Both the position numbers and the translations under genes were made by a program. Positions 14,884-21,039 of a DNA stretch of 64,000 nt are shown here, piece by piece. Numbering within the stretch: position 1 is the stretch's first letter; the number at the start of each line of letters is the position of its first letter. Location of the stretch: NCBI GenBank assembly GCA_020773975.1, contig GCA_020773975.1_3638.1; one strand, 5' to 3'. Source of the DNA: a phage. A model generated the notes under the pieces. It did not search any database. It saw only the letters and a program-made list of their open reading frames with translations, and was not told the origin of the DNA.

Positions 14884-15183
14884 TTAGTGAGAATCTGCCC
14901 ATGTGTATCCACAAAGATATTCTCCTGTAATTAAAACTGGAAGCCCCATTATCTTAGATGCTTTTTCTACACATTTTGTTGCAAGCTCTCCTACTGGGCA
15001 ATGCAGTATCCTGTATTTCCCATACACATCAGGTTCAACAATAACTCTACCCGCTTTCACATAATGTCCGTCGAAACGATGACCTTTTTCAAGCATCATA
15101 TCTACATAGCTTTGTGCCGCCTCTAAGTTAGAATGCTCCGTTATTGATTTAAATCTTTCCGGTACTTGTACCTGTATCTCATC
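14884..15183 (-). CDS. family A DNA polymerase, exon 2 (motif C to C-terminus)
   Basis: Begins DEIQVQVPERF (HDE motif C once joined to exon 1) and ends GEYLCGYTWADSH like PolA C-termini. Confidence 0.85.
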   Translation of the reverse strand, partial: DEIQVQVPERFKSITEHSNLEAAQSYVDMMLEKGHRFDGHYVKAGRVIVEPDVYGKYRILHCPVGELATKCVEKASKIMGLPVLITGEYLCGYTWADSH

Positions 15184-15501
15184 CATCAGTTCAGAGAGTT
15201 CGTTACGCTCTCCCGCACCATTACGTGCATAGCCACAAGATTTCTCCTGTGGGTCGGACTATCTCATCCTCCTGATATTAAGGAGGCCTCCCGTTTCGAC
15301 CGCACTTGCTGGCCTACTCTACTCGCTTTCACATTACTAGTGTGCTTTCGATAGTCTCTGAACGTTCATCCCATAGGGATGCTTCGCTGCGGATTAGCAT
15401 ATTGAACTTTTGCTACTTTTACGTATAAAAGCCAGCTTAGCCTTCCCGTCAATTAGAGAGGTTTTCGACATGCATTACTGCATGAAGCCACAATGTTATT
15501 T
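15184..15501 (-). ncRNA. group I self-splicing intron (ORF-less, 318 nt) in DNA polymerase gene
   Basis: P/Q/R/S-like elements AAUUGACGGGAAGG, AAUCCGCAGC, GUUCAGAGACUA, AGAUAGUCCGACC; IGS GUGG pairs with exon end CCAU; ends in G. Confidence 0.8.
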
Positions 15502-17913
15502 ATGGTAGTAGATAACCCTCCTGACACCTTGGTCGTACCATCCCCATTTCACCAATTCCCAATGGAACAGGACTCCCATGAGGTCAAACAATGAAGCACC
15601 ACCGTTTTGTTGGTAAGCATTCAGCAGAGAATGTTTAGAACGAGTCCAAATTTTACGCCCGTCCATGCCTGGAATATAGCGTCTCCCATTTGCCTCCCAG
15701 AATTTTTCCAACCACTCCCTACGCATTTTCAACCCGAAGTTACTATCCCAGAATGCATCTATTACAGCCTGTGCTCTATTAAGGGGGATACCCAGCATTG
15801 CGGCTATCTTAGGAGCTTGTGCTCCATACATAATTCCATACGTAACCCCCTTTCCTCCAGAGCGTGTTACCTCCTTTCCTGCTGCTATTGTGTATGCTCT
15901 TGCGTTTCGTTCATGGGCATCCTCTTCCATCATGATACGTAAATACTCACCACCATCAAACTCAAAAGCCCCTGCCGCTGCAATCATACCTTCTAAGTTA
16001 GATCCATCACAACCCATCAGGTAGTAGCCTTCAGGGACTGTCCAAAGACCCCGCATTTCTTTTCCCAACAAAACCTTCGGATCAGGCTTGGGCATGTTTG
16101 CGCAAACAGTATGCTTGCACCTGCCCGTGTTAGTGATTCCAGAAAAACGTGCTGGAAGTTTTCCGTCAATGTCTAAACGAGGGTGATTTAATAACCCTGT
16201 ATCCGTCTTATCCTCATCCATTGGGTCTAAAACAGATCGCCTGTTACGAAGTGATAGCCACTTAACAATCTGTTTTGCCATATGCACATCAATTTTCTCC
16301 AAATTTGGACACAGATGCCCAAAATTATCTTTTAATTGAGGAGATGTCGGTAACTGGCGTGCTTTACGCCGAAATTTCTTAAATATCTCTGAATAACCCC
16401 TTTCAGATGCATGGCGATGGTCAAACTTACGCTCTGAAATGTTGAATTTCTCATCTGAATCATTAAGGTAGTCAAGAATAAGAGATTTATACTCAGACTC
16501 TGCCAACTCTTCTATGTACTTCTTAACTAGTACATCAATTTCAGAATCTTCACGAGTCTTTTTAAATTGATCCTTAGTAACATCTTTTACGCGCCACAGT
16601 GTAGGTTTCCAACCAGCATCTTTGATCAAATATTTTTTAATATCATCCTGATTAGAGATTTTCATTGGAACCATTAAATCTGGCATTTTTCTGTTTCGAA
16701 GGTCTTCTTTAGCCTTCTCTAGAAGATCCGGCGGTAAAGGTTCGAGTGTGTTCTCTTTGGTTCGCTGGGAACGAATGAAATCACCGTATAAAGCCGGATC
16801 TTCAATGCCATTCTGGATGCAATATCTCTCCCCTGCTGCACTTACATCCCCATTGCTCTTAAAAGCTGTTTTTGGTGGAGCTTTAAACTCCAGAGCTTCC
16901 CTGTTAACAGGATAGCCAAGTTTATATTCCAACCAATTCCACCCATGATGAGATATATTACCCGCTGTGTCAAAAGGGTTAGCTGGGAATTTTGGTTGTT
17001 GAGATTTCGTCATCTCTTTTTTTGGAAGAAGTGGTTCTACCTCTTCTTCAATTTCTCGCATCATCTTATCTATGCGATCTCTTAATTTTTCTGCCTCCTC
17101 CCGATTAAAGTATACGCCTTGTATTTCTTGCTCTATCATCAAATAGTCTGTGAGCATTCTCCTACGTAATGCATTTTTCCAATTAATCTGGTGCATCCCG
17201 TGAGGTTTATCAGTGTACATAAACTGCTTGTCATCAGGCCATCGCGTACCATTTGACTCATCAATAAGAGCTTTCCACACAAGTTCGTTAATGATAACGT
17301 CTTCCCACACACGGTTTACATATTCCCACAATGGCTGATTACGCCAATCATCAATCTGCACTTTCTTGTTTGCTACACGATAACCCCATGCCAATAAGCC
17401 GTGTGGCCCAACCCTGTCACGTTTTCCTGTTACAGGGTTCAATACAGAATCTGGGCAGCCATTAGGCAATGGGCGATCTGGGTAAAGAACACGACTCATT
17501 GAAAGAGTGTCGTAAAGATTTACCTGTTTATTACCTATCGTCCCCATACATTTTAGGTCTTTGAACATGTCATATTCAATCCCAGAAAGTTTTTTCCACA
17601 GACGTAAATCATAGCCGAACAGGTTATGTATTGCTATCCCTCTTGGCTCGGTCTGCAACCAAGAGTAAAAATCATCATAAGAAAGGATACGTAAATTAAC
17701 ACCTTCTTTGCTGCGTGCAAAATTAACTGCACTCTGGTATTCCTTGTGAGCAGGATCGAGAAACAACACCCAGTTATTTACAGCATATTCTTTAAAAAGT
17801 GTGCAGTGATATTTAGTTGCCTCTTCTAATAATCCGTCAGCTTCGTTATCTCCGACAAAAAGCCCTTTCATACTCCTCCTATTCAAGATGGGCTTGACTG
17901 TATCGTCGCCCAT
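15502..17913 (-). CDS. family A DNA polymerase, exon 1
   Basis: Motif B RSGGKGVTYGIMYGAQ; ORF runs 2 codons into the intron before a stop. Confidence 0.85.
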
Positions 17914-18066: not shown

Positions 18067-21039
18067 TCAAAATGGAGAATCGCTATCTAAATCTTCAGGT
18101 TGCTCAATCACAACAGCAGGTTCTTGTTGAGGAACAGAAACAGCAATTTTCCCCACAGGTGTTTCAAGTTCCAGACTTTGAATCATTGATTTAGGTCTTA
18201 GCATTACCTCCCCGTTGAGTTTAAACATATTGTCTTCCCACACCCATCCTGACGCATCAGAAAACTGACCATTATCATCCATAATCAGGGTATCCGCTAT
18301 GCCTAATTTTTTGTGTGGACGGTTTTTCAAAACAACACTACGAATACGCCCACGAGATCGGTCAGGGAGTTCTTCAGGCTCGACACCTAAGACAACCCAC
18401 GATAACTGTTCGAGTGCTGCACTATTTCCTGTGACAAAAATATGTCCGTTGCGGCGTGCCACCCACATACCGGATGGTAATGTAAAGCAATACTTGCGAC
18501 CATCTGGGGAAGGTACACGTTTAATAGAAGATTTATTTTTCCCTCCTTTACGTATATGCATATACTTTGTGGCACAAACTCTTACTACATACAGAGGTTT
18601 GTGATCATATTTACCATCAAACGCACCATTGCCATTTTTTACAACAGACACAGACGTTCTATGCCCACAAGCACTGTAAGCAAATTGTAGGAAATCTGCC
18701 TCAAATTTGTTAATGGTTGATACCCTGTTTCTGTTTACAGAATCACCATCCCAATACATGACTTCATCACAGATAATCTCCAACTCGTGCTGTTTAAGAT
18801 TAAACCATTCCTTTGTCACCCCTTTATACCCACAAGGGGCTTTAAATTGGTACTCTGTTCTGCCTTCATGCTTCCCGTGCAAATCAAAACTCTTGTAAGG
18901 AGTGTTCGTCTTCTTCAGTAGCATCTCAAGGCGTTGTTTCTTACGTTCTTTTTTGATGCGTACAGCTACCCTTCCCGTTGATTCAGTAAGAACCGTCCCA
19001 TCAGCATTTACAGCTATCTGTAAACGTAGTTGATCATCAGTTAACCCTAATGAACCATCACATCCAGTGGTGAATGTAGTAGGTATTTTACCACGCATAC
19101 CTGATCGTTTATTGGTATGGTCATGAACAACCTCCTGCATAGTTTTCATACGAAAAATATCAGGCGTTCGATCGTTTACATACACAACACGATGTTCATC
19201 GCTCAACATCATGTCTACAACATGGCTATTAGAAAGATGCCACATTTCATTACAAGGTAGATTAATGTACGCCTCGGGATTTACGAAGGTCATTACACCA
19301 TTTTTATCGTGTTGTGCAACCAAATCTCCTTCTACGTATTCATCAATACGTTTCCAGCCTTGCGGGGTTAAGAACTCTGTGCTTGCATCAACACAACCAC
19401 GGAGATCCTCTTTCCGCACAGGATACCAAAACGGTAACAAATTACCTTCTTTATCTTTCGGAATTTGTATATCAACACGCTTCATATGACTGATACTGAG
19501 GATAAACACGTCATATTTTTTGCAGAAGGCAGCCAATTCCGTCATGATGTTATCTAAATCTCTTCGCTCGTTATCGGATTTTAATCCTGATATCACCATC
19601 GATAAGTGATCTAAGATAATCCATCTACACCCATCAAGGAAAACCATCTGTTTCAATTTTTGTAGTAATTGGTCAGTTGGTATTGAACCAAAGTGATCGA
19701 AAATTTTAACCTTATCTTCGGCAATCCATCGTTGGTGTATAGCTAAGTGCTGCTCATCGGTAAGGAATTGTTCTGGGTCTGCAACAAATGCTTTCGGGTC
19801 AATCTTTAGCTCCTCAGCATATAAACTGTTTACAGACTCCTCCTCATCCTCCTCTAGACGAATAATTGCAATTTTCTCGTTCTCTTTCCAACCGTCTAAT
19901 CGGGGAATATCCATGTTACGGAGGTACTCGATAATTGCATACTCAATCTTTCTTGAGAAAGTTGATTTCCCAGCTCCAGATGGGCCTGTCAGTGTCCACA
20001 ATTCTCCTGTTCGTGGGCCTCTTGTTAGTTCATACAAACGAGGAAAGCACGGCAACGGAACGCCATCTTTTTTCTTTTTACGGAGATTTTCAATAGATAT
20101 TCTCTCCAACCCAATCAATTTGTCTGGAACATATTTATCCTGCGCTTTAGCAAACATATTCCAGATATCCATCCATTTACCTTTTTTGTAAATATCCCGG
20201 ATATCTTTAACACCATTTGGGTCATTGCGCTCATTTGGGTATCGTGCAACATAGATGTTGTCAGACAGTAAAAAACCTGCGACATCATCTGTGGCTTCCT
20301 TACCTTTCTTAATTCTGTGTTCTTTTTCCCTTGCTGTGGCTTCATCATTGTCTAAGCCAAGGACAATCTTTTCATATTCCCTGATAAACTTTTCGTTGTG
20401 GGCGAATGTATCCACAGCATTGGCTGTACCACAGTTCAACCCGATAAAAGGTAATGTCGGGCAATTAGAAACCTCTTCCCCATCCTGAATTGCTTTGATG
20501 CCTTTTAAAGCATTGTTTGCCCACTCACGTACTGAACGTGACGTGTTAGGATTGCTATGAAGGAATTTAATATACTCAAACCCAGCTTGCCAGCCAGCCG
20601 TTACATCACCTTCCCCCTCAACAATAAAGATCTGTTTTTTACCAGATCCCATAGAGGCCTCATGTTGACCAAAAAATTGAGAGGAAGCCTTTACTGTGCC
20701 AACAACAGAGAAATGCCCCTTTTTCTCTTTCGGAACAGTCCAGTCTCGTTTTTTGTACCCTGTCAATTTCCCATATTTGTCATAATATGGAAGATATGTT
20801 GCCACCACTGTAGTACCGTCTTTCAAATCTGTTGCAGATCTGATCTTGAAGTACTTAGCTGCATCTAAACTAATATCCATTTGGGGGACAGCCAAGATCC
20901 TTGTACTATCTAGGACAGACTCTACAGTTTCTTCTTCTTTTTTCTGATAATTCACTTTACCACCACTTTTTGTAGGTCGGAATGCTTTTGGGTTCTCACC
21001 TTCAAAGTATGCACCAGCCCCCCATTTTGTCATCTTCAT
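18067..21039 (-). CDS. T7 gp4-like primase-helicase (TOPRIM + DnaB-family helicase) containing an intein
   Basis: TOPRIM IVEGEGD...LGLDNDEA; Walker A GPSGAGKST; Walker B-like WIILDH; acidic C-terminus ending in F (DLDSDSPF) as in T7 gp4; no N-terminal Cys4 zinc ribbon seen. Confidence 0.85.
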   Translation of the reverse strand: MKMTKWGAGAYFEGENPKAFRPTKSGGKVNYQKKEEETVESVLDSTRILAVPQMDISLDAAKYFKIRSATDLKDGTTVVATYLPYYDKYGKLTGYKKRDWTVPKEKKGHFSVVGTVKASSQFFGQHEASMGSGKKQIFIVEGEGDVTAGWQAGFEYIKFLHSNPNTSRSVREWANNALKGIKAIQDGEEVSNCPTLPFIGLNCGTANAVDTFAHNEKFIREYEKIVLGLDNDEATAREKEHRIKKGKEATDDVAGFLLSDNIYVARYPNERNDPNGVKDIRDIYKKGKWMDIWNMFAKAQDKYVPDKLIGLERISIENLRKKKKDGVPLPCFPRLYELTRGPRTGELWTLTGPSGAGKSTFSRKIEYAIIEYLRNMDIPRLDGWKENEKIAIIRLEEDEEESVNSLYAEELKIDPKAFVADPEQFLTDEQHLAIHQRWIAEDKVKIFDHFGSIPTDQLLQKLKQMVFLDGCRWIILDHLSMVISGLKSDNERRDLDNIMTELAAFCKKYDVFILSISHMKRVDIQIPKDKEGNLLPFWYPVRKEDLRGCVDASTEFLTPQGWKRIDEYVEGDLVAQHDKNGVMTFVNPEAYINLPCNEMWHLSNSHVVDMMLSDEHRVVYVNDRTPDIFRMKTMQEVVHDHTNKRSGMRGKIPTTFTTGCDGSLGLTDDQLRLQIAVNADGTVLTESTGRVAVRIKKERKKQRLEMLLKKTNTPYKSFDLHGKHEGRTEYQFKAPCGYKGVTKEWFNLKQHELEIICDEVMYWDGDSVNRNRVSTINKFEADFLQFAYSACGHRTSVSVVKNGNGAFDGKYDHKPLYVVRVCATKYMHIRKGGKNKSSIKRVPSPDGRKYCFTLPSGMWVARRNGHIFVTGNSAALEQLSWVVLGVEPEELPDRSRGRIRSVVLKNRPHKKLGIADTLIMDDNGQFSDASGWVWEDNMFKLNGEVMLRPKSMIQSLELETPVGKIAVSVPQQEPAVVIEQPEDLDSDSPF
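18424..19395 (-). mobile_element. intein (324 aa, Hint + LAGLIDADG-like endonuclease) in the helicase domain
   Basis: Starts CVDASTEF..., ends ...HIFVTGN with +1 Ser; removal joins DLRG|SAALEQLS; LAGLIDADG-like LQIAVNADG. Confidence 0.75.

Follow-up and report, generated by a model that had tools for sequence, protein, structure and literature searches.

The closest described counterparts of the element considered here, a probable intein in the gp4-like DNA primase-helicase gene of an E. coli phage contig of 64,000 nucleotides (NCBI GenBank assembly GCA_020773975.1, contig GCA_020773975.1_3638.1; this whole stretch is termed the window), include the split intein AceL NrdHF (PDB 6ZGQ), for which Hoffmann et al. 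(2020; PMC7891396) showed class 3 chemistry and fast splicing. That intein possesses Ala1, Ser65, His68, Arg69, Met70, Cys124 at position 4 of block F (F:4), Pro128-Gly129, Thr144-Gly145-Asn146 and Ser at the position that opens the C-extein (+1). Its position B:12 is occupied by Met and does not tolerate Trp, a G145H change kills activity, and Arg69 makes up for the missing penultimate His (PMC7891396). According to excerpts of Kelley et al. (2016), which describe it as class 1 and do not mention a role for its Cys at F:4, the recombination directionality factor (RDF) intein of mycobacteriophage Bethlehem splices completely in E. coli, does so more slowly once G316H is introduced, and bears a toxic endonuclease (PMC5050341). 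Inteins within helicase motif H4 are already known, the insertion 'site a' of bacterial DnaB lying there (PMC6195587), and LAGLIDADG inteins have been recorded in phage helicases, including those of Vequintavirinae (Pectobacterium phage CB7; PMC7344957); a literature search for inteins in primase-helicases gave no match. The canonical class 3 lineage marked by the Trp-Cys-Thr (WCT) triplet is considered monophyletic (PMC4031507); Tori et al. (PMC2807308) mention three WCT inteins whose first residue is Ser or Cys.

The host gene in the window encodes a precursor of 990 residues that matches PHROG_239 (DNA primase/helicase, 5e-149) and Pfam DnaB_C (1e-10). A previous inspection of the letters and open reading frames without database searches, hereafter the sequence-only reading, had delimited an insert of 324 residues at 18424-19395, running from Cys549 to Asn872 and followed by Ser; these limits are exact and all of the strings that it quoted were found. 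The insert begins CVDASTEFLTPQGWKRIDE directly after ...KEDLRG and ends ...HIFVTGN, after which SAALEQLS follows. In silico excision leaves 990 - 324 = 666 residues, which is also the length of the primase/helicase of Escherichia phage Av-05 (Vequintavirinae, Avunavirus; KM190144), a phage without the insert whose flanks are 96% identical at the nucleotide level; the two proteins differ at 3 residues. Removal likewise restores colinearity with T7 gp4, as had been claimed: the spliced helicase domain aligns with T7 gp4 structures without a gap over the junction (pvrkedlrgsaaleqls with pvsitdlrgsgalrqls, E 1e-21). The proposed location in the helicase domain is borne out by this alignment, which places the insertion point, Gly548/Ser873 (a slash marks the splice junction throughout), within motif H4, the DNA-binding loop. 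The residues at the junctions are those expected of inteins, namely Cys1, the C-terminal Asn324 and Ser+1 (Ser873). The features, in window positions, are as follows.

18067..21039, minus strand: open reading frame of the precursor, gp4-like DNA primase-helicase, 990 residues, 112.8 kDa, including the stop codon (PHROG_239 and DnaB_C matches)
19396..21039, minus strand: N-extein, residues 1-548, ending ...YPVRKEDLRG, colinear with Av-05 and T7 gp4
18424..19395 (972 bases), minus strand: predicted intein, 324 residues, 37.0 kDa, Cys1 to Asn324 (precursor Cys549 to Asn872)
19075..19395, minus strand: HINT splicing domain, N-terminal half (residues 1-107 of the intein), blocks A and B (match of the family profile to AceL NrdHF, E 3e-8; secondary structure of the model)
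19393..19395, minus strand: Cys1 codon, candidate block A nucleophile (conservation in relatives)
19186..19206, minus strand: block B, LSDEHRV, with Ser65 (B:7), His68 (B:10), Arg69 (B:11) and Val70 (B:12) (His68 invariant; AceL NrdHF alignment)
18526..19074, minus strand: two-motif LAGLIDADG homing endonuclease domain, intein residues ~108-290
18997..19023, minus strand: LAGLIDADG motif 1, LQIAVNADG, Asp132 invariant (alignments of relatives)
18745..18783, minus strand: LAGLIDADG motif 2, LEIICDEVMYWDG, intein residues 205-217, Trp215 and Asp216 invariant (alignments of relatives)
18664..18693, minus strand: FLQFAYSACG helix, intein residues 235-244, after the beta-hairpin of the second endonuclease half, non-catalytic (Cys243 column variable)
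18424..18525, minus strand: C-terminal part of the HINT domain, intein residues 291-324, blocks F and G
18448..18495, minus strand: block F, KYCFTLPSGMWVARRN, with Cys303 at F:4 (codon 18487-18489) (Tyr302-Cys303-Phe304 and Arg314 invariant)
18421..18444, minus strand: block G and first C-extein residue, HIFVTGN/S, with Thr322, Gly323, Asn324 and Ser+1 (T-G-N conservation)
18067..18423, minus strand: C-extein, residues 873-990, starting SAALEQLS, with the stop codon (colinear with Av-05 and T7 gp4)

We consider the insert to be a full-length and probably still mobile intein, in which a homing endonuclease of the monomeric, two-motif LAGLIDADG type divides a HINT domain, and put the probability of this interpretation at about 0.9. 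The identification as an intein, which agrees with the sequence-only reading, is supported by clean excisability, by the unrelated hosts of its relatives, by the fold of the model and by residue conservation. Translation would yield the 112.8-kDa precursor, within which the intein would fold and excise itself as a 37-kDa protein, joining KEDLRG to SAALEQLS to give an active enzyme of 666 residues (calculated masses: 112.8 kDa for the precursor, 75.8 kDa after splicing and 37.0 kDa for the intein). The N-terminal peptide bond would be attacked by Cys1 and/or Cys303, and cyclization of Asn324 would be assisted by Arg69 rather than by a penultimate His. The freed intein may then cut intein-less alleles at DLRG/S and spread by homing in co-infection. 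The same logic applies to the DnaB site-a inteins (Msm DnaBi2, Mtu DnaB; PMC6195587), which also bear an endonuclease and interrupt the H4 loop of a replicative hexameric helicase, and whose precursors are non-functional until splicing; unlike the window intein, these are canonical class 1 elements in bacterial DnaB hosts. No specific sequence relationship between the window intein and the DnaB site-a inteins was detected. The Ssp DnaB junction, which we take to be RESG/SIEQD, would set that site about two residues away from DLRG/SAALEQ. As the primase-helicase would be inactive until the 37-kDa element leaves the DNA-binding loop, the rate of splicing is a possible control point in replication.

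The fold of the insert was examined with an AlphaFold2 model built from 12 sequences (mean predicted local distance difference test score 89.6, predicted template modelling score 0.88). Foldseek comparison of the model with the PDB returned the TliVMA, PhoVMA, PI-SceI and PI-PfuI inteins (E 2e-13 to 4e-9), and I-DmoI matched the middle domain. The predicted structure shows a HINT fold and, within the LAGLIDADG domain, a duplicated alpha-beta-beta-alpha-beta-beta-alpha fold. Each of the two LAGLIDADG helices carries a catalytic acidic residue followed by Gly, Asp132 and Asp216, both invariant in alignments of 58 and of 67 relatives. The endonuclease columns that are invariant in the 58 relatives (32-43% identity) include Asp132, Lys152, Lys191, Trp215 and Asp216. 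The sequence-only reading had proposed LQIAVNADG and FLQFAYSACG as the LAGLIDADG-like segments. The former stands, whereas the latter is displaced: Asp216 is invariant and closes LEIICDEVMYWDG, within model helix 202-216, and LEIICDEVMYWDG is therefore the second motif. FLQFAYSACG was rejected in this role as its supposed acidic column, Cys243, holds T, C, L, V, I or A in relatives; its counterpart there is a helix that falls at the middle of the Pfam LAGLIDADG_3 profile. That profile matches 21 of the 58 relatives, with a best value of 1e-7 and with the individually examined matches below the gathering score.

The extent of the family emerged from a search of loci and from an exhaustive HMMER scan across a library clustered at 50% identity, with 1.84 billion representatives, a word-prefiltered protein search having yielded 11 relatives. 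With the insert alone as query, and counted at the level of clusters, 3323 relatives had E<=1e-3 and 586 of them had E<=1e-30. Residue counts given below refer to 67 distinct relatives, or to 80 IMG/VR loci for the +1 residue, and to a second set of 155 full-length copies, namely those contained in the top 150 proteins of the HMMER scan. Full-length relatives with 24-42% identity were located by tblastn in genes for primase/helicase, PhoH, RtcB, a RecD-like helicase, ribonucleotide reductase (RNR), primase, NAMPT and phosphatase, and internal segments of PHROGs families matched the insert (PhoH-like 3e-60, RNR 1e-8, TerL 0.07). Nearly all of the 80 IMG/VR loci have the intein in a Walker A loop, in the arrangement G-x-x-G/intein/(S/T/C)-G-K-(S/T). 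Once the intein is removed in silico, the hosts produce full-length Pfam matches, as for RtcB (1-426/426), PhoH (2-203/205) and RecA (7-261/262) as well as SNF2, RecD-like and clamp loader proteins. The 155 copies include 126 in P-loops, 3 in RtcB and 7 at the H4 site of gp4-like helicases (P0027, P0029, P0030, P0031, P0035, P0038 and P0080); as these seven are among the best-scoring relatives, the window intein is a member of an established H4-site lineage. Additional inteins are present in the host proteins of certain relatives (L008, L011, L065; P0028, P0034, P0043), among them a canonical ...VVHN/C intein in the RNR of L065 and a second intein in the terminase-like protein of L011, and single host proteins with two or three copies of the family occur. 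A second copy of the family was looked for within the window and none was found.

The residues that are predicted to act in splicing are C1, S65, H68, R69, V70, C303, P307..G309, T322-G323-N324 and S+1. His at B:10 is present in 67/67 relatives, and Ser65-Asp-Glu-His68 corresponds to the T/S-x-x-H pattern of block B; B:7 is S, T or C and B:11 is Arg in 45 of the 67. Position B:12 is most often Val (V 48, I 7, C 5, M 3, others), as in the window intein, which is without the Trp of class 3. Cys at F:4 is found in 67/67 relatives and 155/155 copies, and T-G-N (G:5 to G:7) in 67/67 and 140/155. The C-terminal Asn is invariant, and +1 is always S, T or C, with counts of S 38, T 22 and C 20 in the 80 loci (S/T in 60/80) and of S/T 95 and Cys 60 in the 155 copies. 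In the alignment of 58 relatives, the invariant columns comprise H68, Y302-C303-F304, R314 and T322-G323-N324 together with the endonuclease residues D132, K152, K191, W215 and D216. A penultimate His at G:6, a frequent but non-obligatory feature of inteins, is replaced by Gly323. The sequence-only reading had noted this Gly correctly, but had taken it for a known, uncommon variant; it is not sporadic but a hallmark of the family, present in all 67 close relatives, and a change to His is harmful in two relatives studied by experiment (PMC7891396; excerpts of PMC5050341). Three remote relatives, in the RNR of Staphylococcus phage Romulus (L087), the RNR of Shigella phage SHSML-45 (L088) and the NAMPT of Citrobacter phage Tr1 (L091), end in V-C-G-N, with Cys for Thr at G:5, and keep Cys at F:4 (VYCVEV, VYCVQV).

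Set beside the known systems, the window intein most closely resembles AceL NrdHF, which gave the family profile its best sequence match in the PDB (E 3e-8). The two have Ser65, His68 and Arg69 under the same numbers, a Cys at F:4 followed by a Pro/Gly kink, T-G-N and Ser+1; neither contains the two histidines of Asn cyclization, and AceL NrdHF is probably phage-borne too. As these residues coincide, Gly at the penultimate position belongs to a coherent alternative design, and the predicted active site is of the AceL NrdHF type, not the textbook type. The differences are that AceL NrdHF is naturally split, has Ala1 and an RNR subunit as host, and contains no in-frame endonuclease but a free-standing GIY-YIG gene between its halves, whereas the window intein is contiguous, has the LAGLIDADG domain inside, resides in a helicase and keeps Cys1. 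The Bethlehem RDF intein scores 44.9 bits against the family profile and aligns with the window intein from end to end at 19% identity. It is comparable in length (~317 residues), likewise has Cys1, a TANHRV block B, VWCLRV with Cys at F:4, an LTGN end and a two-motif LAGLIDADG endonuclease, and differs in its host protein, a phosphoesterase-type recombination directionality factor, and in the phylum of its bacterial host. With the canonical WCT class 3 inteins (MP-Be DnaB, Msm DnaBi1, MchDnaB1) the window intein shares Cys at F:4, Thr at G:5, Ser/Thr at +1 and phage association, and MP-Be DnaB has Pro1 as do some relatives of the window intein (PMC2807308); Val70 in place of Trp at B:12 and the presence of Cys1 set the window intein apart. 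The PI-SceI, TliVMA, PhoVMA, PI-PfuI and PI-PkoII inteins are 10-15% identical to it and larger, with 366-537 residues in the solved chains. At the penultimate position these five presumably have the canonical His, and at F:4 a residue other than Cys.

The combination of invariant Cys at F:4 and Thr at G:5, a signature of the rare class 3 type that had been overlooked in the sequence-only reading, raises the question of which cysteine initiates splicing. Three class 3 features are found in the window intein, namely Cys303 at F:4, Thr322 at G:5 and Ser873 at +1, but an N-terminal nucleophile is present and Trp at B:12 is missing. By the usual definition, as applied to the sequence, the window intein is thus not class 3, although it may nonetheless work like one. 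Six relatives on IMG/VR contigs (L015, L047, L057, L064, L066 and L080) have Pro1 with the other catalytic residues intact and Ser+1 in every case, and on sequence grounds these are class 3 by definition. A neighbor-joining tree has Pro1 arising separately at least three times, probably four, and in each case the neighbors are Cys1 relatives that occupy the same host-protein site; L057 (Pro1) is 72% identical to L016 (Cys1), and L066 (Pro1) is 59% identical to L008 (Cys1). A thioester cannot form on Pro1, with which the prototype class 3 intein likewise begins (PMC2807308), and therefore the scaffold evidently can run on Cys F:4, which variants with Pro1 or Ala1 retain. A remote relative in a Ser/Thr phosphatase gene of Rheinheimera phage Barba35A (L090; 83 related records; 86 bits to the family profile) presents the reverse case: it keeps Cys1 and VTGN/C, has Gly at F:4 and no Cys in the last 40 residues, and therefore must use Cys1.

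These patterns lead us to propose, tentatively and at somewhat under even odds, that in this very large phage family Cys1 and Cys F:4 are both invariant and both candidates for the nucleophile that initiates splicing, and that either can be lost in relatives. For the window intein itself, the chances lean slightly towards Cys303 being required for splicing, and survival of splicing in a Cys1Ala mutant is conceivable but falls a little short of an even bet. If the proposal is true, a dual-cysteine background gave rise to class 3 chemistry more than once, separately from the canonical WCT lineage, and the family would supply an intein with Ser+1 for which E. coli is the native setting of splicing. 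The noteworthy pattern is that of dual cysteines, each repeatedly lost, in kin of the atypical class 3 AceL NrdHF intein and not of the WCT lineage. As hallmarks of classes 1 and 3 are combined and Cys1 has given way to Pro1 several times, the origin of class 3 would be testable with a few point mutants.

An alternative with a credible claim, although not an even one, is that the window intein splices by the class 1 route only. Cys1 would form a linear thioester from which the N-extein is passed straight to Ser+1, and Cys303 would be a helper or a redox-sensitive stand-in for the usual Asp. Retention of Cys1 in 61/67 relatives and in 155/155 copies, a block B of the class 1-like S/T-x-x-H form, the dependence on Cys1 deduced for the Rheinheimera phage relative, and the handling of the Bethlehem RDF relative as class 1 in excerpts of Kelley et al. 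(PMC5050341) all accord with this route. However, the route does not accommodate the class 3 signature of Cys F:4 and Thr G:5, class 3 splicing has been proven for the nearest relative of solved structure (PMC7891396), and the Pro1 relatives, up to 72% identical and at the same insertion site, are unable to use it.

The opposite alternative, that the window intein is obligately class 3 despite Cys1, appears possible but rather doubtful. In that case Cys303, activated by His68 and Thr322, would attack at the N-terminal junction to form the block F branched thioester from which the N-extein moves to Ser+1, and Cys1 would not act as a nucleophile. The correspondence with the AceL NrdHF constellation from S65 to Ser+1 fits this scheme, as does the occurrence of Pro1 in 6/67 relatives from at least three lineages with an otherwise unchanged catalytic set; Pro1 also begins the prototype, and the WCT inteins with Ser1 or Cys1 mentioned above are a precedent (PMC2807308). 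An idle Cys1 would nevertheless leave its strong conservation unexplained, the Trp of the WCT triplet is missing at B:12, and Cys+1 in 60/155 relatives is unusual for class 3.

The case for mobility, as part of the preferred interpretation of a homing intein, comes from comparison of closely related phages at the same site. Escherichia phages 18-1-2, 19-1-2, 24-2-1 and vB_EcoM_TH18, with flanks 95% identical, harbor another intein of the family, of 308 residues, at the identical DLRG/S site (in 18-1-2, L083:1922-2845, minus strand). This sister is 32% identical to the window intein and has its closest kin among terminase-type inteins of P-loops, which points to independent invasion or replacement. 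The Av-05 allele (L082) shows 65 nucleotide differences from the window over 2001 nucleotides, of which 13, against an expectation of 1.2, fall in the 37 nucleotides that adjoin the insertion point on its 5' side (P ~6e-10); the 130 nucleotides 3' of that point are identical, and the 5' recoding includes one Asp-to-Ser change. The last five codons before the site read GAA TCT TTA AGG GGA in Av-05 and GAG GAT CTC CGT GGT in the window (on the 19396 side), the intein-less site of the window type being ...GAGGATCTCCGTGGT/AGTGCAGCA... and the Av-05 allele ...GAATCTTTAAGGGGA/AGT.... The intein-less phages SSE121, 4MG and KB57 retain the window-type KEDLRG and therefore the Av-05 site is derived. 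Its recoding is consistent with escape from the endonuclease, and the site may be endonuclease-resistant.

That the endonuclease is instead dead, with a working splicing domain that persists as a fixed, vertically inherited passenger without homing, is unlikely. Decayed endonucleases are common in inteins, and the sequence of the window intein itself lies below all Pfam LAGLIDADG thresholds, with no match to LAGLIDADG_1, LAGLIDADG_2 or LAGLIDADG_3 even at E<=1. Both catalytic Asp and two Lys are nonetheless invariant. The ratio of nonsynonymous to synonymous substitution rates (Ka/Ks) against L001, an 87%-identical copy at the same site, is 0.063 overall; for the endonuclease domain it is 0.037, a rough estimate because a Ks of 1.8 there is near saturation. 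Decay is also at odds with the presence/absence and replacement polymorphism among phages with flanks 95-96% identical, with the recoded target site in Av-05 and with the toxicity in E. coli of the endonuclease of the Bethlehem relative, as given in excerpts of its description (PMC5050341).

Besides the roughness of the Ka/Ks values, several points weigh against the interpretation of the insert as an active, mobile intein. Its splicing and endonuclease activities are ones that we infer, and the assignment as an intein draws on family profiles and a predicted structure. Single-sequence searches with the insert alone against Pfam, NCBIfam and, with phmmer, the PDB gave no match, and the informative evidence came from PHROGs, tblastn, family profiles and the structure model. 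Neither of the usual helpers of Asn cyclization, a penultimate His and a His in block F, is present. Causes other than endonuclease pressure could account for the recoded site in Av-05. Nevertheless, a permanently retained domain (for example, an endonuclease-derived DNA-binding module) or a cleavage-only BIL/Hint domain was rejected as very improbable, even though no profile library names the insert directly, given that it divides the conserved H4 motif, that in most relatives a retained 37-kDa insert would abolish function by dividing the Walker A loop, that the terminal Asn and Ser/Thr/Cys+1 are always there, and that splicing has been shown for relatives (PMC7891396; in excerpts, PMC5050341). 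A decayed pseudo-intein was likewise rejected.

The G+C content of the insert (0.39-0.44) is the same as that of the flanks. The protein of 990 residues, encoded at 18070-21039 on the minus strand, has an identical NCBI entry, EIM2934250.1, which is named 'AAA family ATPase [Escherichia coli]' and comes from a contig of 133,857 bp, and its cluster at 90% identity has 26 members; neither this entry nor related phage records carry an intein annotation. The family, with thousands of cluster-level members, is probably under-annotated in public records, as Pfam and NCBIfam miss the intein despite its numerous relatives and the NCBI name is simply that of an AAA family ATPase. As splicing at 37 °C in E. 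coli, with Ser at +1, is to be expected of it, the window intein is also a candidate tool for protein engineering.

The sequence-only reading had described a companion intron in the DNA polymerase gene, and this holds: a group I intron at 15236-15511 on the minus strand matches Rfam RF00028 over the full model (81.2 bits, E 6.5e-21) and interrupts that gene. Both core replisome genes of the phage, for primase-helicase and polymerase, thus host selfish elements. The intron is too short for an endonuclease open reading frame. The polymerase pieces are an open reading frame of 805 residues at 15496..17913, which ends ...VIYYHK before its stop codon, and another at 14884..15186, which starts MDEIQVQV. 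The position at which the intron splits the gene resembles what we take to be the 'HDE' motif of family A polymerases.

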